Shown here in pieces: positions 7,040 to 33,106 of a DNA stretch of 33,620 nt; the first letter of the stretch is position 1; every line of letters begins with the position of its first letter. Under the pieces are notes generated by a model that worked only from the letters and a program-made list of their open reading frames with translations, was not told the DNA's origin and made no database searches. Where the stretch lies: the IMG/VR virus record IMGVR_UViG_3300043451_000065, positions 1-33,620 of that record; one strand, 5' to 3'. The position numbers were made by a program, and so were the translations under genes. This DNA comes from a virus. Its lineage: Duplodnaviria > Caudoviricetes.

Positions 7040-7097
7040 TGCTTGAAAATAATTTAAAAATAAATTTAAAATAATTTTTTAGTATCAAAAAAGGTAG

Positions 7098-7145
7098 TAT
7101 CTTTGTCATGTAGTCAGCAACGAAGCAACTACAAAACATCTAAAC
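7098..7145 (+). promoter_or_regulatory. Early-type promoter, copy A
   Basis: TATCTTTG (Bacteroidota -7 TAnnTTTG) + ATGTAGTCAG + ACATCTAAAC, shared with copies at 27969-28050 and 28354-28435. Confidence 0.75.
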
Positions 7146-14768: not shown

Positions 14769-15055
14769 TGACTGACAAAGACATAAAATTCATCCAAGAC
14801 AATATCATCAACTTCGAATCGGTAGCGCTTGGATTTACTCGAAACTTAGACCACGCGGTCCTTAATGAGTATCACGAAATCTACAAGCGATCACTGGATC
14901 CAAGCTTCGTTTTGAATGCCTGGTGCGGAGGCTGTGTCTTCGACATGCTCAAGCGCTTAAAGCATCACTACGAGAATGTGATCTCAGCTCAACAAACTAA
15001 CCAAACCAATGACAAAATCAAAGCTAAGAATCCTGGCGGTAGGAAGTCAAAATAG
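14768..15055 (+). CDS. Hypothetical protein with CxxC
   Basis: WCGGCVFDML; basic tail. Confidence 0.7.
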   Translation: MTDKDIKFIQDNIINFESVALGFTRNLDHAVLNEYHEIYKRSLDPSFVLNAWCGGCVFDMLKRLKHHYENVISAQQTNQTNDKIKAKNPGGRKSK

Positions 15056-16031
15056 TGGCGTAACTTACCACAGACTGGCGCTTCCTTTGTCGATCATGGA
15101 GAAGGAGTACTGCCTAATCACTGACACGATCACAGAGGATCTATTGAAAGAAAAGAATTTCAATGTCGTAGTGGTAAATCGGTTCCTGGAATCGACGCCA
15201 CTTCTTCAGCTCCTAGAATGGCGCCAGAAGTTTGGCTTTAAATTGGTGGTAGATATCGATGACTACTGGACTCTGTTCGATAAGCATCTAAGCGCGCCTA
15301 CCTATCGCAAGCTTGGAGTGACTAGGATTATCAAGGACTACATTCGTTTTGCTGACCTGGTTACAACGACTCACAATCGCCTCCGCTTGGAGATCGTCCA
15401 GATCAATAAAAACTGCGAGGTACTTCCGAATGCCTTGCCATTTGATAAGGATCAATTCACAGCTATCAAGAAGGAGAATGAGAAAGTAACGATCGCACAC
15501 ACTGGATCGATCACTCACTACCCGGATATTCAGCAACTCAAGAAACCGATCGAAGAGCTGGCGAAGTCAAGGGTATTCAGAGAGAATACCAGGATGCTTC
15601 TGTGTGGATGGAATGAGTTCAACAAATGGCACTGGGAACAGATGGGAAATCTATACACTGCTAATGAGAAGCTTGACTATAAGATCCTCGAGTCGATGCC
15701 GGTCGATCTATACATGAATTTTTACTTAGAGGCAGACATGCTTTTAGTTCCTTTGCTGGATAATAAATTCAACAGACTAAAGTCGAATCTTAAAGCGCTG
15801 GAGGCAGGAGCGAAAAACATCCCGATCCTAACCTACAAGCGAGCGCCTTATGAAGATATCCCGACGATCTTCGAGGTCGATAACTGGGAGCGCGACATAA
15901 AACGAATGGCATTCAGTAAGCAGATGCGCGATGACTTTGGATATAGGAACGGAGAATATGTCCGCGAACATTACGATATCTTTAAAATTAACGAGGCACG
16001 ATTTGCTACTTACTCCAAACTAATCGAGTAA
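15009..16031 (+). CDS. Glycosyltransferase (GT-B fold, GT4-like)
   Basis: SGVTYHRL, LVVDIDDYW, ADLVTTT, LPNA, LVPLLDNKFNRLKSNLKALEAG. Confidence 0.85.
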   Translation: MTKSKLRILAVGSQNSGVTYHRLALPLSIMEKEYCLITDTITEDLLKEKNFNVVVVNRFLESTPLLQLLEWRQKFGFKLVVDIDDYWTLFDKHLSAPTYRKLGVTRIIKDYIRFADLVTTTHNRLRLEIVQINKNCEVLPNALPFDKDQFTAIKKENEKVTIAHTGSITHYPDIQQLKKPIEELAKSRVFRENTRMLLCGWNEFNKWHWEQMGNLYTANEKLDYKILESMPVDLYMNFYLEADMLLVPLLDNKFNRLKSNLKALEAGAKNIPILTYKRAPYEDIPTIFEVDNWERDIKRMAFSKQMRDDFGYRNGEYVREHYDIFKINEARFATYSKLIE

Positions 16032-16035
16032 AATT

Positions 16036-16464
16036 ATGCCAGTCATAAAATGCAATAATGGAAAATACAGAATCGGATCAGGTGCTTGCATCTATGACAC
16101 CGAAGAGAAAGCTATCGAAGTCTACCAGGCGATCCTAGCCGGTGGAGCTTTTGCTGAATCGTTTAATGACTATCCAGAGGCAGCGACAAACAACGCCAAG
16201 AGAGCGCTTGCTTATGCTGAGAAAAATGGCTGGGGATCATGTGGCACTCCAGTAGGAAAAGCCAGAGCTAACCAGCTAGCAAACAAGGAGCCGATCTCAC
16301 GCGACACGATCGCAAGAATGGCGAGCTTTAAAAGACACCAACAGAATAAAGACGTTCCTTATGGCGAAGGCTGTGGAGGTTTAATGTGGGATGCCTGGGG
16401 AGGCACCGAGGGGATTGAATGGGCGATTAGAAAATTAGACCAGATAGATAATGCAAGCAACTGA
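16036..16464 (+). CDS. Putative minor head/virion-associated protein
   Basis: FNDYPEAATNNAKRAL...WGSCGTPVGKARANQLA...LMWDAWGG, a module I recall from phage head-associated proteins. Confidence 0.5.
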   Translation: MPVIKCNNGKYRIGSGACIYDTEEKAIEVYQAILAGGAFAESFNDYPEAATNNAKRALAYAEKNGWGSCGTPVGKARANQLANKEPISRDTIARMASFKRHQQNKDVPYGEGCGGLMWDAWGGTEGIEWAIRKLDQIDNASN

Positions 16465-16984
16465 AAAGGAGTTTTTCGATTACGAGATCAGCATCGGAGT
16501 AACTCCAGAGAATCCAGACTACTGGGCTCTCATGGATGGCACTGCGAACATCATTAAAAACTACGCTCAGTCTGTGATCGAGATCGGTGCTGGTATGGGA
16601 ACGCTAGGCGAATGCTTAGAGCACAAAGGAATCGAATACTATGGCATCGAGCCAAACAAATATCACAGAGACTTTGCACGATCCAGGGGAATAAACCTAA
16701 AAGATTTAGGCAATTATCCTGGAAAATGTGGAATGATCGTCTCGATCGAGGTGTTTGAACACCTAACAGACGAGCAGATCAACGAGTATTTAGAGAGTAT
16801 CGAGGCTAATTACCTGCTTCTTTCTTCCACTCCATACACTACCACAGAAGAATTTGATGCCTGGTGGGGCCATATTAACATAAAACAGACCGATCAATGG
16901 ATCGAATTTATGGCAGAATATGGATATTCGCTGTATCATCGCCTAACTATACCGACTGATTGGACCTTATTATTCAAAAAATGA
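16451..16984 (+). CDS. Class I SAM-dependent methyltransferase
   Basis: VIEIGAGMG, GIEPN, SIEVFEHL, GHINIK; lacks DNA-methyltransferase catalytic motifs. Confidence 0.85.
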   Translation: MQATEKEFFDYEISIGVTPENPDYWALMDGTANIIKNYAQSVIEIGAGMGTLGECLEHKGIEYYGIEPNKYHRDFARSRGINLKDLGNYPGKCGMIVSIEVFEHLTDEQINEYLESIEANYLLLSSTPYTTTEEFDAWWGHINIKQTDQWIEFMAEYGYSLYHRLTIPTDWTLLFKK

Positions 16985-25233: not shown

Positions 25234-26532
25234 ATGAATTTACCTATTTATTTACTAGAAATTAATGAGGACCTAATGGATGGATCTGAAGTAGATTTCG
25301 TCGCTTTGGTAGACAAGCCAGCGATCGAAAGAAACTTCCTTCGCTTCAAAGAGGATCGCTTAAATTTTGAGATCCAGGACGAAGAGCGCCGGATCATCTC
25401 AGGTCCTATCATGCTAGCAGATACACCGATCTATCGTAACGATAACGGCCAAGAGTATTTCGTTTCCTTTCCAAAGGATACGATTTACAAGATCGTTAAA
25501 AAAATGTTCCAGAAGGGATATACTTCAAACGTGAATTTGATGCACGATCCTAACCAGGTGGTCGATGGCGTGACGATGTTTGAGTGTTGGATCACAGATG
25601 AGTCGAGAGGAATCAAACCAATGAAAGGATTTGAAGACGCTCCAGACGGCTCGGCTTTTGCCTCTTATTCGATCGATAACGAAGAGGTTTGGTCTAAAGT
25701 TAAATCTGGGGAGTTTAAAGGTTTCTCTGTGGAAGGTATGTTCAACTACAAGAAACAGCCAAGCGAGATGACTAAAGAAGAAAAGCTCTGGTCTGATATC
25801 GCAACGATCCTGGATGAAATTGATTTCGGTGGTCCTGGTAGTGGAAGACGTCCAGAAGGAGGGGCAGACAAAGAATCAAAGGGGGCTGGTAGAATGCCAA
25901 AGGTGGCGATCGTAAAACCAGGAGATCCAAGAGTTTCTAGTTTAATGGAAGGAGCTAAAGCTTCAGCTGGCGAAGTAGATAAAGTCGGCAAAGGTTATGC
26001 TGAAAAACTAGGAGGCGTAGTGACTCCGATCAACTTAAAATCTGAAGATAGTATTTTAAGAAAGGTAAACGACGAAGAAGGCGGAAAGGTAGACGCGATA
26101 AAAGATGCGGTCAGAAACACAGTCGTAATTGATCGAGAAAAAATCGGATCAGCTAGAGATCTGGCTAAGTCTGATCCTAGATTCAGCGCTGAGAATGGCG
26201 GAAGAATTAAGGTTCAGGAAGGCGATCAATTTTTCGGATATTCTGGAACGATCGTAAACTTCAAGACTGAAAATGGAACGATGGCAGAAATGCAAATTAA
26301 TACTCCAGCGATGATCTATGCGAAAGAAAAAGAAGGAAGCGCTAGAGCTGTTCTAGGAGACAAGAAATACGACGAGATCGCAAAAAGAACTGGTCTTCCT
26401 GGGGGCCAAGGTCATGCTCTATATGAGGAGATCAGAGTCTTAAACGCCGGACGTCCAACTGTGGAAAATGTTCAAAGGATCGAGGAGCTAAAATCACAGT
26501 CAATAAATTATTATAAAAACTTTGGTTTCTAA
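25234..26532 (+). CDS. XkdF-like prohead protease fused to a RelA/SpoT-type (Apk/Tas1-like) nucleotidyltransferase
   Basis: aa 1-198: VALVDKPAIE, ERRIISGPIM, NLMH, VKSGEFKGFSVEG; GGPGSG linker at aa 199; then LKSEDSILRK, IKDAVRNT, GYSG, EMQINT, HALYEEIR. Confidence 0.82.
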   Translation: MNLPIYLLEINEDLMDGSEVDFVALVDKPAIERNFLRFKEDRLNFEIQDEERRIISGPIMLADTPIYRNDNGQEYFVSFPKDTIYKIVKKMFQKGYTSNVNLMHDPNQVVDGVTMFECWITDESRGIKPMKGFEDAPDGSAFASYSIDNEEVWSKVKSGEFKGFSVEGMFNYKKQPSEMTKEEKLWSDIATILDEIDFGGPGSGRRPEGGADKESKGAGRMPKVAIVKPGDPRVSSLMEGAKASAGEVDKVGKGYAEKLGGVVTPINLKSEDSILRKVNDEEGGKVDAIKDAVRNTVVIDREKIGSARDLAKSDPRFSAENGGRIKVQEGDQFFGYSGTIVNFKTENGTMAEMQINTPAMIYAKEKEGSARAVLGDKKYDEIAKRTGLPGGQGHALYEEIRVLNAGRPTVENVQRIEELKSQSINYYKNFGF

Positions 26533-26555
26533 ATAAAATTTTATATATTGTAAAT

Positions 26556-26780
26556 ATGAGTGACTTGATGAATTTAGTAGAGCGCCTAAACAGCGTGCCA
26601 GTTTATTTGCTTTTAGAAAGCGAAGATCTGGTAATTAAAAGTCTTCCAGAAAATCCGAGCTTGATCGCAAAAAGAAAAGCCGGCGAAGAATTCCCTTTGG
26701 CATTCAACACCGACTTAGCGATCGAAGCGATCTATCAAGGAGGAAAAGAGATCAGCGAAGCTGAATATTTGAGCTATTAA
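26556..26780 (+). CDS. Small acidic protein, candidate immunity/antitoxin
   Basis: 74 aa, directly after the toxin-like domain; ends EISEAEY. Confidence 0.55.
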   Translation: MSDLMNLVERLNSVPVYLLLESEDLVIKSLPENPSLIAKRKAGEEFPLAFNTDLAIEAIYQGGKEISEAEYLSY

Positions 26781-27274
26781 TCTAGCTCAAAAAATTCCTT
26801 GATCTGATCAAATAAATATCTGTAATTTTCGCGGAGCAGGATTCTATAAAATATAGGATTCTGCTCTTTGTATTTGGCGAGCTTCTCATCATTATCATCC
26901 CTGATACAGCACGCTATATTTGCAAACCTATCGCAAACCTTAACGAAGATCGCGAGATCATCCTGAGCTACCTGGTTAAAATACTCTTCTGGGTTTGAGC
27001 TGTTCTTAGTCAGCAATTTAACGATCAATAAAATCCTTGGATTTAAGGCTCTTAAAATTTCATCCTGGGTGCATAGTGTATCTTCGAGGATATCGTGCAA
27101 ATAAGCGGCACAAATGACATCTTCAAGAGCTTCTCTTGGTATTAATTCAGAGTATAATCTGACTGCATTTACTACCATTTGTAAGTGATCTGAATAAGGA
27201 CTATTTCCGTACTTCTGATCCGCGTGATAAGAGAAAGCCAGTTCCCTGGCTCTCATGATTAATTGACTATCCAT
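26777..27274 (-). CDS. HD-domain small alarmone hydrolase (Mesh1/Aph1-like); start revised to 27274
   Basis: A.SYHADQKY..PYSDH, AAYLHDILEDT, IVKLLTK, VKVCDRFAN. Confidence 0.88.
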   Translation of the reverse strand: MDSQLIMRARELAFSYHADQKYGNSPYSDHLQMVVNAVRLYSELIPREALEDVICAAYLHDILEDTLCTQDEILRALNPRILLIVKLLTKNSSNPEEYFNQVAQDDLAIFVKVCDRFANIACCIRDDNDEKLAKYKEQNPIFYRILLRENYRYLFDQIKEFFELD

Positions 27275-27284
27275 ATTTTTATTT

Positions 27285-27851
27285 TTAAGCATACCAACTA
27301 CAATAAACACCTTCGTCTCCTTTGCTGTAAAGATTGATGATCCCGTGCTCACTTCTCAGATAGTAGCTAGGATTTCCTCCACTTACCCAGGCGTTCACGT
27401 TCTTTCTGATCGGCTCTCCGCAGAAACTATCTTTAACTGGGGCAGTTAATCCAGCCATGCTACTATATCCCTGGCTTGGGACCATCTTCCCCTGGATCGG
27501 CTGAATAACAACGCTTTTGTTTTTCACTTCGATTACCTGGTAGAAGTCGATGTTTGTCTGCTCATATCCCCAGCTGTCATAGACGATCTCTCCGACTTGG
27601 AAAGGATTATTTTCAAGCGCTTTCTTCTTCTCCGCTTTTCTTTCTTCATGGTAGGCTTGGATCGCTAATTTACGAATCAATTCTTTTCCAAGCCAAGCTT
27701 CCATTTGCTCAACATTTTTAAATCTATAATTGAAGAGCGGTTTAGCATTGGCGCTTTTTGCTCTCAAGTTACGGCCCAAAGCGACACATCTTTCGATATT
27801 GATTTCAAGACCAACATTAACAAGGGCGAATTTACTGATTAAATTTTTCAT
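27285..27851 (-). CDS. Early hypothetical protein
   Basis: 188 aa; VGEIVYDSWGYEQTNIDFYQV. Confidence 0.8.
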   Translation of the reverse strand: MKNLISKFALVNVGLEINIERCVALGRNLRAKSANAKPLFNYRFKNVEQMEAWLGKELIRKLAIQAYHEERKAEKKKALENNPFQVGEIVYDSWGYEQTNIDFYQVIEVKNKSVVIQPIQGKMVPSQGYSSMAGLTAPVKDSFCGEPIRKNVNAWVSGGNPSYYLRSEHGIINLYSKGDEGVYCSWYA

Positions 27852-27871
27852 GGGATTAGATATTTATAGGA

Positions 27872-27958
27872 TTAAAAACTGATTCTTCCGTTTCTTTGAA
27901 CTCGATCATTCAAGACGATCTGGAAAACAAGGGCGATTAAAATAAATAAGTAAATCAT
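27872..27958 (-). CDS. Small single-TM peptide, 28 aa (not in ORF track)
   Basis: MIYLFILIALVFQIVLNDRVQRNGRISF; starts just after the ATCTAAAC leader of promoter copy B. Confidence 0.55.
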   Translation of the reverse strand: MIYLFILIALVFQIVLNDRVQRNGRISF

Positions 27959-27968
27959 TTTTCAAGGG

Positions 27969-28050
27969 GTTTAGATTAGTAGCACACTGACTACATATCA
28001 AAGGTAATAAATTATTTCATAAATAAAAATAATTTTTAATAATTTTTTTC
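27969..28050 (-). promoter_or_regulatory. Early-type promoter, copy B
   Basis: Minus strand GAAAAAAATTATTAAAAAT...TACCTTTGATATGTAGTCAG...ATCTAAAC. Confidence 0.8.
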
Positions 28051-28055
28051 CTGGG

Positions 28056-28343
28056 TTAAATGTTCAGCCCAGGAAAGATTTCTTCTAGTTCTCCGGCTTC
28101 GATCGCCTTGAAGATTTTTACTAAGTTTTCTGGCTTGTATAAGTATTGAATAATTCGCAAAGCTTCTTTTTGATTACCTTCAGTAGCAACCATTATCTGA
28201 GCGTAAGCGTCAGCCATGCTAGGCTCTACCCAGTCTAAAATTTTGATTTGATTCTCATTCAATCCGGCGCGATCCTGGCGGTGGCTATTAAAGAAAGCAT
28301 TGTAAGCAGCACCGTAAGCAAGTTCTTTTAATTGAGCATTCAT
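28056..28343 (-). CDS. Early hypothetical protein
   Basis: 95 aa, flanked by promoter copies B and C. Confidence 0.75.
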   Translation of the reverse strand: MNAQLKELAYGAAYNAFFNSHRQDRAGLNENQIKILDWVEPSMADAYAQIMVATEGNQKEALRIIQYLYKPENLVKIFKAIEAGELEEIFPGLNI

Positions 28344-28353
28344 GATCTTTATT

Positions 28354-28435
28354 GTTTAGATGTTCTGTCGTTCTGACTACATATCAAAGATACAAAACTA
28401 TTCCAGAATAAAAAACATTTTTAATAATTTTTTTC
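28354..28435 (-). promoter_or_regulatory. Early-type promoter, copy C
   Basis: Minus strand GAAAAAAATTATTAAAAAT...TATCTTTGATATGTAGTCAG...ACATCTAAAC. Confidence 0.8.
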
Positions 28436-28492
28436 TTAAAGTATAAACTTTTTTTCTATCCCTATTTATAAGCAAAGTAAAAAACTAAAAAA

Positions 28493-29086
28493 ATGACGGT
28501 AAAAGAAGGAATCGAAAAAATCCGCTTGATGCTAGCCTCAGAAGGCGAAGCGGACCAAGTCGAGACTAATGAGCCAGAGGCACCCGTTTCTGAATTAGCT
28601 TTTGAATCTTACGATCTTAAAGACGGATCGAAGATTGACTTGAGCGGTTTAGAAATCGGAGCTGAAGCTTCTTTAGTAGACGAAACGGGGAACGCTTCCC
28701 CGGCTCCAGATGGAGAGTATGAGTTAGTAGACGGTACTATGATCACGATCGTAGGCGGTAAGGTAGAAGGCATTGAGACTCCTCAAGCTGAAGCTGAGCC
28801 GATTGAAATGCCAGAGGAAGAGATTCCAATGGAGTCGGACAAGTTCACAGAGATCGACGGCACGATCGAAAACTTAAAGGCAGAGAACGAAGCTTTAAAA
28901 GCTAAGATTGCATCTATCGAGGGTAAATTCTCTCAAGCGATCAACGATCTTTCTGACGTAGTTTTGGGTTTAGCTTCAACTCCTAGCGCTGGTCCTATCC
29001 AGGCACCAAAAAATTCTTTCTCTCAAGCAGAGAAAAGAGAAGAGAAAATCGAGAGATTTTTAAACAAAGTAAAAAATTTAAAATAA
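28493..29086 (+). CDS. Capsid scaffolding protein
   Basis: Acidic; PAPDGEYELVDG motif; coiled coil; basic C-terminus; precedes the capsid gene. Confidence 0.7.
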   Translation: MTVKEGIEKIRLMLASEGEADQVETNEPEAPVSELAFESYDLKDGSKIDLSGLEIGAEASLVDETGNASPAPDGEYELVDGTMITIVGGKVEGIETPQAEAEPIEMPEEEIPMESDKFTEIDGTIENLKAENEALKAKIASIEGKFSQAINDLSDVVLGLASTPSAGPIQAPKNSFSQAEKREEKIERFLNKVKNLK

Positions 29087-29106: not shown

Positions 29107-30069
29107 ATGGCATTTGTAGTATCTTCATTGGCTAACTATACAGAAGAGAACGCGACACAATTAGTAGCGTCTTCAGTATTAGGAGCAAAAACAATCTCTT
29201 TGATCAAGGATCAAGGTAACGTAATGTTAGGCGTAAAATCTGCTGAGACAGTAAACATCATGGACACTGACGCGTTCTTCCAAGATGGTTCTTCTTGCGG
29301 TTTCAACGCTTCTGGCACAACTACTTTCACACAGCGTACTTTAACTGTAGGAAAGATCAAAGTAAACGAGGCACTTTGCCCGAAAGATTTAGAGTCTAAG
29401 TATTTACAGAAGGCATTGCCTGCTGGATCTTCTTATGATTCTATCGTATTCGCTGCTGAATACTCACAACGTAAGGCTGACAAGATCGCTTCTCAATTAG
29501 AGATCGCGGTATGGCAAGGCGATACAGCTTCAGCTAACGGAAACTTAAACAAGTTCGACGGTTTCGCTAAGTTAATCGCTGCTGCTTCTGCTTCAGTAAT
29601 CCACGCTAATACGACTACTTACTACGGTACTCCTTTAGCTGCTTCAGCTGGTATCACTACTTCTAATGTGATCAACGTAATCGATGCAGTTTACAAAGCT
29701 TTACCTGCTGAGATCGTATCTAAGGACGATGCAACTATCTTCGTAGGAATGGATGTATTCCGTACTTACACTATCGCTTTAAAGAACGCGAATTTATTCG
29801 CTTACACTTTCGACGGTAAGGCAGATTCAGAATTGATGTTACCAGGTACAACTGTTAAGGTGGTAGCTGTTCAAGGTTTGAATGGTCTTTCTAAGATCTA
29901 TGGTGGTCGCGTTTCAAACATGTTCTACGGAACTGACTTATTAGATGAGCAAGAGCGTTTCGAATTGTTCTTTGCTAAAGAAGCTGATCAAGTTCGCTTC
30001 GTAGCTGAATTCAAGGCTGGCGTTCAGATCGCTTTCCCTGCTGAGATGGTAGATTTTATCTTAGCTTAA
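29107..30069 (+). CDS. Major capsid protein
   Basis: 320 aa; LCPKDLE, VWQGD, FDGFAK, FYGTDLL; follows the scaffold gene. Confidence 0.85.
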   Translation: MAFVVSSLANYTEENATQLVASSVLGAKTISLIKDQGNVMLGVKSAETVNIMDTDAFFQDGSSCGFNASGTTTFTQRTLTVGKIKVNEALCPKDLESKYLQKALPAGSSYDSIVFAAEYSQRKADKIASQLEIAVWQGDTASANGNLNKFDGFAKLIAAASASVIHANTTTYYGTPLAASAGITTSNVINVIDAVYKALPAEIVSKDDATIFVGMDVFRTYTIALKNANLFAYTFDGKADSELMLPGTTVKVVAVQGLNGLSKIYGGRVSNMFYGTDLLDEQERFELFFAKEADQVRFVAEFKAGVQIAFPAEMVDFILA

Positions 30070-30743: not shown

Positions 30744-31130
30744 ATGATTCACTTGACTAAAGGACAAACGACTAAAATAGTAGTGACGCTAAAGGAGAAG
30801 CAAACCCTTTCGGCGCCTAATTACTTATTCTTCTTTAAGTCCAGATCGACAGATAAGACTAAAGCTTTTGTGCTTTTAAATGCTGCGGATCTATCAGCTT
30901 ACAAGGATAGATTCAACGCTTTTAATATCGTCACTAATAGCTATTTTGCTAATTATGACAGCGGAGAATATACTTATGCTATCTATGAGCAGACATCAAG
31001 TTCAAATTTAGATCCTGCTTTAGCTACAAATTTGCTAGAACTGGGGCAAATGTCACTTAAAAACTCGACAGAATTTGAATTCACTACATACAACCAGACG
31101 AATAATACCTTTATAGTGCGCGATATATGA
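30744..31130 (+). CDS. Putative structural protein (start revised to 30744)
   Basis: MIHLTKGQ...; the track start at 30666 runs through the terminator; ATGA overlap with the portal. Confidence 0.65.
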   Translation: MIHLTKGQTTKIVVTLKEKQTLSAPNYLFFFKSRSTDKTKAFVLLNAADLSAYKDRFNAFNIVTNSYFANYDSGEYTYAIYEQTSSSNLDPALATNLLELGQMSLKNSTEFEFTTYNQTNNTFIVRDI

Positions 31131-33106
31131 GCAATACAACGAATTTCTTGAACGTCCTTACCTTTGCGGAGGCCAGACAGCCAGAGTATCAAGAGAAAAA
31201 AGGCGAGAATGGTGGATACATTGAGTTTGGAAAAAAGAATGACTACCCTAATTACCTGGTAGATCTGTTTAGCAAGTCAGCTAAGCACAACGCGATCATA
31301 AAAAGCAAGGTAAACTATATCACTGGAAACGGTTTTAAGCCGATCGAAGAAACGGATCAAGCAGCTCAGGAGTTTATTGACAAACCAAACCCTTTCGAAT
31401 CACTTAATGATATCCTAAAAAAGGTATCGACAGACGTCGAATTATTTGGAGGTGCTTATCTTCAAGTTATATGGAGCCAAACCGGTGGACAGATTGCAGA
31501 AGTTTATCACTTAGACTATACTAAGGTCCGCACAAATGACGATAATACTCAGTTCTGGTATTCTGAAAACTGGCAAGACTCAAAATATAAGCGCTCTATT
31601 TATAACGCTTTTAATGACAAGCTTCCAGTAGGTACACAGATCCTATACTTAAAAGAATACCGTCCTAATCTTTCGGCTTATTCTTTACCTGGTTATATTG
31701 GAGCTTTGAATTATATCGAGTCAGATATCGAAGTTTCTAAGCACGTCTTAGGAAACGCGCAGACTGGCTTCAGTGCTTCTAAATTAATCACACTTCCTAA
31801 CGGCGAGCCTCAAGATGAAGAGAAGCGCCAAGTAGAGCGTAAATTTACAGATCGTTTCTCTGGATCCGACGGCAAGAAGTTCATTCTTTCCTTCGTGAAC
31901 GATGCTTCTCGCAAGCCGATCATCGAGGACCTGGGAGCTTCAGATATTACTAAAGAAGATTTTGCGAATGTCGATAAGATCATCGAGAAAAACGTGTATG
32001 CTGGACACCAGATTACGTCTCCAGATTTATTCGGTATTTCGACACCTGGTCAATTAGGATCACGCCAGCAAATGCGCGACTCTTACGAGATCTTCAAAAA
32101 TACATACGTCAATGATAAGCAAATATATCAAGAACAAGTATTCAGTTTACTTGCCAAATTACGCGGTTCTATCGATGGGCTACAAATAATCCCAGTAGAG
32201 CCAATCGGCATGGAATTCTCTGAAGCTACGATCGCGCAAAACTTAACTAAAGACGAGATCCGCGAAAAACTTGGAGCGCCTAAATTAGAGGCTAAGACTT
32301 CAGGAACTTCTCAGGATGTGATTGATGCGATCAATAGCTTATCGCCATTAGTAGCGAACAAGGTACTTGAGTCCATGACTCCAAATGAAGTCAGGGCCCT
32401 GGTAGGCTTAACAGAAGAGCAAGGAGGCGGAGAGCTAGAAGGCGCCGCTCCTGCTGCTACTAATTTACGATTTAGCGAAGATGATATCATCTCGATCTTT
32501 GATCAGTTCGGAGAGTCTAAAAGCAACTACTCCATATTTCGCACTAGAGACACGTTCTCAGCCTTGCCTAATGACTTAGAGGAGGCGATGAATTTGGACT
32601 TTGCTACTCAAGAATTAACACGCCTAGAGGCGAATGTCTTGGACCTGATCCAGAAGGATAAGAGAATCACTCCAGAGATAATCTCAGGCACGATCAAAAC
32701 TGATCTAGCGATCATTAATAAAATCATGGACTCCTTAGAGGAACGCGGTTTGATCAAGTCTACAAATGTTCGCGGAAATGTCGAGAGAGTTTTGACTTCT
32801 CCCCTTACTGAGATCACTGACACTAAGCCATCAACGCGTAGCTTCATGGTCCGCTATTCTTACGAGTGGAGATCATCGATCCCAGCAGGACAGAGAAACA
32901 CAGCAGCGCATCCAAGCAGACAATTTTGTGCGCGCTTGATGCAACTAGATAAACTATACACCAGGGCAGAGATCGAAGCGATCAGCTTGCGACTAGGTTA
33001 TTCAGTATTTGATCGTCGCGGTGGCTGGTGGACTATGCCAGACGGAGAACATTCTCCTTCTTGCCGTCATGTCTGGGCTTCTCAGGTAGTAATTAAAAAA
33101 GGATAA
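31127..33106 (+). CDS. Portal protein with C-terminal wHTH-like and MuF-like extension
   Basis: FGKKNDYPNYL...SAKHNAII...GNG, LFGGAYLQV, GHQITSP.LFG; C-terminal SRQFC...GG...CRHVW. Confidence 0.85.
   Translation: MSNTTNFLNVLTFAEARQPEYQEKKGENGGYIEFGKKNDYPNYLVDLFSKSAKHNAIIKSKVNYITGNGFKPIEETDQAAQEFIDKPNPFESLNDILKKVSTDVELFGGAYLQVIWSQTGGQIAEVYHLDYTKVRTNDDNTQFWYSENWQDSKYKRSIYNAFNDKLPVGTQILYLKEYRPNLSAYSLPGYIGALNYIESDIEVSKHVLGNAQTGFSASKLITLPNGEPQDEEKRQVERKFTDRFSGSDGKKFILSFVNDASRKPIIEDLGASDITKEDFANVDKIIEKNVYAGHQITSPDLFGISTPGQLGSRQQMRDSYEIFKNTYVNDKQIYQEQVFSLLAKLRGSIDGLQIIPVEPIGMEFSEATIAQNLTKDEIREKLGAPKLEAKTSGTSQDVIDAINSLSPLVANKVLESMTPNEVRALVGLTEEQGGGELEGAAPAATNLRFSEDDIISIFDQFGESKSNYSIFRTRDTFSALPNDLEEAMNLDFATQELTRLEANVLDLIQKDKRITPEIISGTIKTDLAIINKIMDSLEERGLIKSTNVRGNVERVLTSPLTEITDTKPSTRSFMVRYSYEWRSSIPAGQRNTAAHPSRQFCARLMQLDKLYTRAEIEAISLRLGYSVFDRRGGWWTMPDGEHSPSCRHVWASQVVIKKG

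Follow-up and report, generated by a model that had tools for sequence, protein, structure and literature searches.

Introduction

The closest solved structure to the toxin described here is Tas1/Apk1 of Pseudomonas aeruginosa (6ox6), an effector with a PAAR carrier that is delivered by the type VI secretion system and has an immunity protein, Tis1, and no hydrolase partner. In prophages, a triad of Apk toxin, immunity protein and hydrolase is known on MuF proteins (PMC10083569, PMC12226406, PMC11699363, PMC12691689). In the Apk2-IapK-Aph1 toxins of this kind, the gene for a head-associated protein with a Tas1-type C-terminus precedes a Tis1-like gene and one for an HD hydrolase, and the C-terminal domains swap among relatives (PMC10083569, PMC12226406, PMC5576092). 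Here we analyze a 33,620-nt stretch of DNA from a tailed phage, IMG/VR record IMGVR_UViG_3300043451_000065 (the window), in which a Tas1-like domain, with genes for a Tis1-like and an HD hydrolase-like protein downstream, is fused to a different head protein, the XkdF-family prohead protease.

The window system works like an Apk2-type polymorphic toxin without being an Apk2 member: it has a new carrier (XkdF rather than MuF), an apparently lytic phage and separately promoted antidotes. Toxin-bearing MuF genes are reported, in the accessible part of the source, only from temperate phages (PMC5576092), whereas no integrase or resolvase was found in 12 toxin-bearing genomes here. The hydrolase gene lies on the opposite strand behind an early-type promoter, a separate promoter-like element precedes the immunity gene, and the syn3 GxN and Aph1 signatures are found only in part. 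Tas1 differs from the window toxin in its carrier, its delivery and its lack of a hydrolase, and the counterpart of its N370 is displaced here. Phage polyvalent proteins are likewise virion-linked and multidomain, with RelA/SpoT, Zeta-like kinase and ADP-ribosyltransferase (ART) domains and a predicted peptidase cut and injection; in the part of that study available, RelA/SpoT and Zeta domains are placed on MuF, and assemblin-like peptidases are rare and always C-terminal (PMC5512222), whereas here the core head protease is N-terminal and carries a single swappable toxin with its cognate antidote. With T4 gp21, the XkdF (PF14550) proteases and gp01 of Nonlabens phage P12024, the carrier shares its fold, its place before the scaffold and capsid genes, and a conserved His and GFS-Ser; those known forms are bare or scaffold-fused, whereas the toxin cassette lies exactly at the protease-scaffold boundary.

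A preliminary description, made from the sequence alone, had read positions 25234-27274 as a head-maturation protease carrying an alarmone-synthetase toxin, followed by an immunity gene and a hydrolase, and its author had not seen such a carrier described. We likewise found no description of a protease-toxin fusion in the literature searched, outside which most subscription papers lie. XkdF is mentioned only as a head peptidase in PMC7824862 and is not named in the supplements of two Apk papers; the words “prohead”, “assemblin” and “XkdF” do not occur in the accessible 300,000 characters of PMC3482391. Eight uncultured-phage rows in one dataset, which could not be matched, could include such fusions unremarked. 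MuF toxins are known as enzymes and were tied to lysogeny, and what they do for the phage is described as unknown (PMC12254948, for the role of MuF proteins). In the phages studied here, which are apparently lytic, this kind of toxin sits on a second carrier, an essential maturation enzyme.

Results and Discussion

The fusion is a single 432-aa open reading frame (ORF; 25234-26532, plus strand), free of stops throughout. Its parts and partner genes are the following.

25234-25827, plus strand: XkdF-family prohead protease domain, aa 1-198 (PF14550 and T4 gp21 matches)
25828-25914, plus strand: disordered linker beginning GGPGSGRRPEGG (low model confidence, conserved motif)
25915-26532, plus strand: Tas1/Apk-like pyrophosphokinase domain, aa ~228-432 (sequence, profile and fold matches)
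26556-26780, plus strand: 74-aa Tis1/IapK-like immunity protein (profile match to Tis1, predicted complex)
26777-27274, minus strand: 165-aa HD-domain small alarmone hydrolase-like protein (PF13328, E 9e-7; PaSAH match)
25818-28435, no strand assigned: whole inserted cassette, comprising the toxin extension, immunity and hydrolase genes, two further early genes and promoters (blastn against 5 empty-site loci)

A phmmer search with the C-terminal part of the fusion returned Tas1 (6ox6_A) as the sole solved chain at E ≤ 10 (E 1.9e-30, ~35% identity), and its synthetase motifs are therefore not a chance resemblance. The profile match of the domain to Tas1 reached E 7e-53. In Foldseek, the modeled domain retrieved Tas1 first (E 1e-15 vs 4e-6 for the next match), and it superposed on Tas1 with Z 22.2 and a root-mean-square deviation of 2.3 over 192 aligned residues, vs Z 12.6 for the next alarmone synthetase and Z ≤ 12.6 for (p)ppGpp synthetases and tRNA pyrophosphokinases. 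We aligned 107 full-length fusions, namely the window protein and 106 of the 120 proteins listed from 1278 matches (~107 of those 120 are full-length fusions, at 46-96% identity). K269, D291, R294, E352, Q354 and H394, together with G335-Y336-G338, are invariant in 107/107. Catalytic and ATP-binding residues of Tas1, including N370, have been reported (PMC12691689); R330, E382 and Q384 correspond to the invariant R294, E352 and Q354, and K353 aligns with R324, by our own mapping with a +21 offset on the PDB chain. The syn2 RNT and syn4 Q(I/V)N motifs also agree with Tas1. The toxin part has a ratio of nonsynonymous to synonymous substitution rates (dN/dS) of 0.056-0.066 in 4 pairs with nearly saturated dS and is, judged from these sequences, under purifying selection. 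From sequence and model, we predict that the domain makes (p)ppApp. PADLOC returned no match for 7 proteins, and the window fusion (P0001) has no MuF/SPP1 gp7 match in Pfam or NCBIfam.

The N-terminal part is an XkdF prohead protease: PF14550 matches aa 45-169 at E 9e-12 (45.5 bits against a cut-off of 24), the model has a protease fold and superposes on T4 gp21 (5jbl; Z 8.3, root-mean-square deviation 2.9, 116 aligned residues), the His/Ser pair is present, and the gene lies in a head-gene context. H104 and S165, invariant in 107/107 fusions, are putative catalytic residues by analogy with the family. In another three homologs (P0096, P0102 and P0110) and in loci L050-L052, an extra domain of ~105-130 aa lies in the N-terminal region of the protease; in the three proteins it sits between two Phe-ending motifs. 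One further protein, P0327, has a tail that looks WYL-like by eye.

The two domains are joined by a linker whose first residue, G199 of F|GGPGSGRRP, begins at 25828. Residues 196-223 have a predicted local distance difference test score (pLDDT) below 50 in the model and are taken as disordered. The linker is of the type GGxGSG in 98/107 fusions and RDxxGR(F/W) in 9/107. Position 198 is Leu, Phe or Met in 102/107 (L 62, F 34, M 6), certain bare proteases terminate at this very residue, and the bond after F198 is a candidate cleavage point on the aligned sequences. A strict rule that the protease cuts after Phe was considered and could not be established from these counts, and the corresponding capsid and scaffold motifs are weak.

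Contigs of two other studies span the junction gap-free (X3 record 18, 25306-26601; X5 record 27, 25534-25854), which, with the full-length fusion homologs, rules out an assembly artifact or frameshift. RNA contigs (X23) cover 12/30 bins and give neither strand nor timing. The preliminary description thus holds for the fusion as such: the protease, with its PF14550 N-terminus, is the carrier; it runs without a stop or frameshift through GGPGSGRRP at 25828 into a second domain; the RelA/SpoT synthetase motifs at K269, D291, E352 and H394 are correctly placed and in order; and the fold search that it had proposed puts Tas1 first, in line with its assignment to the Tas1/Apk type.

A small gene homologous to Tis1 lies directly downstream of the toxin in 44/44 complete Apk loci. 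The family profile of the 74-aa protein matches only Tis1 (6ox6_B) in the PDB (E 0.0044), whereas phmmer with the single sequence found nothing, and the homolog P0148 scores 26.2 bits against PF24154 (cut-off 27). The predicted toxin-immunity complex scores 0.84 vs 0.00 for the best of three controls, with at least 96% of contacts shared among runs and a partner pLDDT of 91; the mark used is reached by 116/157 solved pairs and 2/215 mismatched pairs, and because the Tas1-Tis1 complex is already solved, the score shows likeness only, not binding. Profile and model together predict a Tis1-like immunity protein, the role first proposed for this ORF.

The HD gene, on the minus strand, overlaps the end of the convergent 74-aa gene. 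[quoted passage not shown] H60, D61, E64, D65, D115, N119, K134 and Y135 are invariant in 14/14 homologs, so the hydrolase core (HDxxED, DR, N) is present. Compared by motif position with the Aph1 signature (D24, R96, D116, R119, K133, Y134), the protein has K134-Y135 and a Tyr at the D24 site, and Aph1 is absent from its 20 phmmer matches. Since the D24 equivalent is apparently missing, we do not file the protein as Aph1: it is alarmone hydrolase-like, and not clearly an Aph1 or a Mesh1. The HD gene as a chance neighbor was dismissed, as it is absent from 16 whole records without Apk, with the control positive in 2/2 Apk genomes.

These genes belong to an insertion with sharp boundaries. Alignment by blastn with 5 empty-site loci stops at 25808-25817 and resumes at 28436, with flanks 85-92% identical, delimiting a 2.6-kb cassette; in the empty-site phages, the scaffold gene comes immediately after the gene for a 198-aa protease. 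The unit named in the preliminary description contains the fusion, immunity and HD genes correctly and is too small, as the cassette reaches 28435, taking in a further two genes on the minus strand along with three promoter-like elements. A single ORF encodes both protease and scaffold in Nonlabens phage P12024S, as it does in 3 genome loci, which suggests, at the level of sequence, that the cassette sits at a natural processing boundary.

We next compared viral loci collected by targeted queries (best 80 matches each): 212 loci minus 8 duplicates and 3 with Apk on MuF or portal proteins left 201 contigs. The protease is bare in 129, Apk-bearing in 46 and Zeta-bearing in 21, with 3 other extensions, 1 cut and 1 likely frameshifted; because the queries were targeted and limited, 129:46:21 is not a natural frequency. 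The Zeta domain matches PF06414 at E 1e-24. Among complete Apk loci (those reaching the scaffold), 44/44 have a 72-76-aa immunity gene, an HD gene and a 188-aa gene, and none has the 56-57-aa gene found with Zeta. All 20 complete Zeta loci have the 188-aa gene and a 56-57-aa minus-strand gene, with immunity and HD genes in 0/20. Bare loci reaching the scaffold contain none of the cassette partners (0/127). The protease domains themselves barely differ: they are identical between the Apk-bearing L055/L060 and the Zeta-bearing L083, and fused and bare forms are 97-98% identical. On a tree of 51 protease domains, 49 of them labelled by state, the three states require 18 changes, a raw count with no shuffled comparison.

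With a conserved N-terminal carrier, exchangeable C-terminal toxins and a partner gene that changes with the toxin, the locus has, by its sequences, the makeup of a polymorphic toxin system. The survey for interchangeable domains after GGPGSG that had been suggested for this locus thus recovered bare, Apk and Zeta forms of the same protease. In a wider set, 71 of the 150 listed 50%-cluster representatives (from 5365 matches) have extensions longer than 45 aa; 51 of these are scaffold-like and 3 are Apk, and the other 17 include one Zeta as well as P0199. Toxin extensions on the protease were found in 0/27 genome loci. The Zeta fusion also occurs in UniRef (A0A6J5KKZ6), under a name that reflects the toxin domain only.

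Beside the Zeta-like kinase, the immunity and HD genes give way to that for the conserved 56-57-aa protein (L083:5451-5624, minus strand; likewise in 19 further Zeta loci). Pfam, PHROG, NCBIfam and PADLOC yield no match for this protein, which is a candidate new antitoxin, by position. P0199 combines the protease and GGPGSG linker with an ART-like tail (aa 200-375, Atlas score 0.88), a lead only from a single short contig. In L109 (3995-4909), the protease and GGPGSG linker are followed by a 117-aa helical tail and then directly by the scaffold, with no antidote genes; the tail is possibly a non-toxic or truncated cargo. Apk also occurs on other head proteins, namely a MuF-like protein (L013:3014-4779) and a portal-MuF fusion (L014:1700-4952). 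Both contain SPP1 gp7/MuF domains (TIGR01641), keep the GxN signature and are followed by a small Tis1-like gene.

Both antidote genes carry promoter-like elements of the host-sigma type, as judged from sequence motifs. The Bacteroidota -7 box is TAnnTTTG (PMC6847099, PMC2483708). The elements in the window are as follows.

26521-26550, plus strand: immunity-gene promoter-like element TTTG-N19-TATATTG, 5 nt before the ATG, a 7-mer variant of the -7 box
27987-28048, minus strand: early-type promoter-like repeat, -7 box TACCTTTG at 27999-28006, upstream of the 188-aa and HD genes
28373-28434, minus strand: second copy of the early-type repeat, -7 box TATCTTTG at 28385-28392, before the 95-aa gene
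7056-7117, plus strand: third copy of the early-type repeat, at the start of the early/replication region

A -7-like element ends 2-7 nt before the immunity ATG in 44/44 Apk contigs vs 0/485 distinct control upstream sequences, with a TTTG -33 box in 33/44. The consensus places the -7 box 4-5 nt from the transcript start (PMC6847099), so transcription would start at or beside the ATG, and the immunity mRNA is, on this spacing, likely leaderless. The early-type repeat is 62 nt long and contains TAnnTTTG; its extended motif TAnnTTTGnnATGT has 3 exact copies in the window vs 0.1 in shuffles, and the copy at 7056-7117 identifies it as an early motif. The extended motif lies upstream of the 188-aa gene on the minus strand in 62/64 cassettes vs 5/64 on the plus strand. 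A related element precedes the ATG of the Zeta partner gene by 4 nt in 20/20 loci (TTTG 19 nt upstream in 17), vs 3/434 controls. A sigma-70 promoter scan gave no excess over shuffles (7 vs 8.2), as expected for Bacteroidota. A downstream gene in a late operon would gain little from its own host promoter unless needed early, which supports an early need for the antidotes.

Prohead entry is established for such proteases. Since the enzyme has to get inside, the toxin would travel with it, and the protease could release it at the linker. We consider, at even chances and from sequences and models, that an exchangeable, predicted (p)ppApp-making Tas1-like domain on the head protease is packaged, cut free and injected, and kills cells that do not promptly express the phage genome. 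The fusion would be made late and kept inactive by the Tis1-like protein; the protease would join the prohead with the scaffold, bringing the toxin along; the linker would be cut near F198, leaving the folded toxin domain in the head; and the toxin would be ejected unfolded, losing its inhibitor. Host RNA polymerase would then immediately transcribe the leaderless immunity gene together with the operon of the hydrolase, and in a productive infection the enzyme would be blocked and its product cleared. Where the genome is silenced by restriction, CRISPR or exclusion by a resident rival, ATP and ADP would be drained, and the cell would be lost together with any rival progeny.

The swap of two unrelated toxins within one phage lineage fits interference competition. 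A wider claim, which we find plausible if somewhat short of even, is that in lytic freshwater Bacteroidota phages the protease is a self-releasing loader of interchangeable poisons (Apk, Zeta-like, possibly ART), each with a leaderless immediate antidote, that kills defended hosts and cells of rival, non-immune sister phages independently of lysogeny. If so, a toxin-first virion with its antidote in the genome would pose an ultimatum in phage-phage and phage-immunity conflict without lysogeny, and would suggest a natural route for loading cargo into heads. Bare, Apk and Zeta alleles on near-identical proteases are natural isogenic-like controls, and the antidote promoters predict timing; virion delivery, self-release and phage-phage interference thus become directly testable.

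Several points weigh against injection and killing. Self-digestion and exit from the head are frequent among prohead proteases such as HK97 gp4. The residue before the linker is more often Leu than Phe (62 vs 34 of 107) and yields no cleavage rule, and early antidotes would also suit simple protection before late toxin synthesis. The immunity promoter pattern was picked after inspection of the sequences, with the exact 8-mer in only 15/44 contigs and the 7-mer variant, which the window has, in 29/44. Delivery is still to be shown even for MuF toxins, as far as the accessible parts of the sources go (PMC10083569, PMC12254948). Aph1 turns over ~478 ppApp per minute vs ~100,000 for Apk-type enzymes, so rescue would be a race. 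The toxin also lacks the syn3 GxN signature, to which Tas1 N370 belongs (PMC12226406): position 340 is I, L or V in 107/107 (I340 here) with no indel, and an invariant N342 lies two residues beyond the position aligned to N370 (107/107). Because of this displaced Asn, product or rate may differ.

One alternative is that the Tas1-like fold makes another product, for example (p)ppGpp, a mixture of alarmones or pyrophosphorylated RNA, or hardly any product, and acts as a mild host regulator. In its favor, N370 is not conserved in place, and the HD protein, whose nearest match is the bifunctional PaSAH, apparently has no Aph1 D24 equivalent. The structural match to Tas1 (Z 22.2) far exceeds those to (p)ppGpp synthetases and tRNA pyrophosphokinases, syn2 and syn4 match Tas1, and a Tis1-like inhibitor is always adjacent; we regard such a regulator as highly improbable.

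If instead the toxin is active but stays in the producing cell or head, it would be an in-cell toxin-antitoxin “dead man's switch”: late defenses or a parasite halt phage expression, the antidotes run out, and the fusion serves only late expression. The tight toxin-antidote pairing and the early antidote promoters fit this too, as does the common self-digestion of prohead proteases. However, a separate downstream gene would give equal late expression, but the two toxins, though unrelated, invariably occur as in-frame fusions via the same GGPGSG linker, and the same toxin type is fused to SPP1 gp7/MuF head proteins in L013 and L014. A switch confined to the producing cell is thus, in our view, unlikely.

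An injected toxin might also aid its own infection, in that a short, self-limiting drop in ATP, or (p)ppApp as a signal, stalls ATP-dependent defenses or host metabolism until the antidotes act. With a hydrolase such an effect would be reversible, the B. caccae Apk2 enzyme is bacteriostatic (PMC10083569), and the altered syn3 could mean a slower enzyme. Early phage transcription needs host ATP, however, and no phage RNA polymerase was found among the ORFs scanned; a Zeta kinase of the cell-wall-precursor type in the same slot points to killing rather than an ATP-specific trick, and the cassette is commonly missing from near-identical phages (127 contigs). We consider this self-help quite unlikely. 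Of the two roles first offered for the toxin, killing when the phage genome fails fits the antidote promoters better, and draining ATP to stall defenses less.

The remaining genes around the fusion are listed below.

27285-27851, minus strand: 188-aa conserved phage protein whose C-terminal barrel is SH3/Tudor-like (found in all complete toxin cassettes)
28056-28343, minus strand: 95-aa variable early gene, in only part of the cassettes
28493-29086, plus strand: putative scaffold (head-gene order)
29107-30069, plus strand: major capsid protein (head-gene order)

The 188-aa gene occurs in 64/64 cassettes and 0/127 empty sites and is free-standing in 1/13 empty-site phages (L241). As it accompanies both toxins and stands alone in L241, a role as a dedicated antidote is not supported. 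A fold search with its product gave a best PDB match of Z 5.8 only, the other matches being unnamed viral proteins. A 13-pair stem-loop (28045-28078) overlaps the end of the 95-aa gene by the early promoter copy at 27987-28048 and is a possible terminator.

The gene content of the window is that of a tailed phage (terminase, portal, tape-measure-like, capsid, DnaB and lysozyme genes). Its initial 521 nt recur at its end (512/521 identical), which suggests a circular unit of ~33.1 kb; the IMG/VR entry is linear and 52% complete. Two empty-site relatives with direct terminal repeats measure 30.9 and 31.2 kb (rated 58%), near 33.1 minus 2.6 kb. Near-identical DNA occurs in freshwater and aquatic metagenomes. 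Because 25/27 related-protease genome loci are titled Bacteroidota, mostly Chitinophagaceae, the host is probably a member of the Bacteroidota. Bacterial chromosomes contain relatives at ≤50% identity, and cultured-phage matches are only Nonlabens P12024 (35% for the protease, 25% for the capsid) and, to the toxin domain, a single record without annotation.

The window ORFs scanned include no recognizable integrase, resolvase or repressor, in keeping with the earlier remark that lysogeny genes are not visible. Tyrosine integrases and serine resolvases were found in 0/12 toxin-bearing virus records (completeness ≥90% in 10; controls positive in 14/14 and 12/14), a result compatible with plasmid-like lysogeny; by gene content, the toxin-bearing phages are apparently lytic.

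The 659-aa portal (31127-33106) has a long C-terminal extension with a helix-turn-helix-like part and a Cys/His-containing tail, without a toxin; no MuF profile matches this portal, and we take its tail to resemble a MuF-type end. Just upstream of the terminase gene, glycosyltransferase and methyltransferase-like genes (15009-16984) form a possible DNA or surface modification module.

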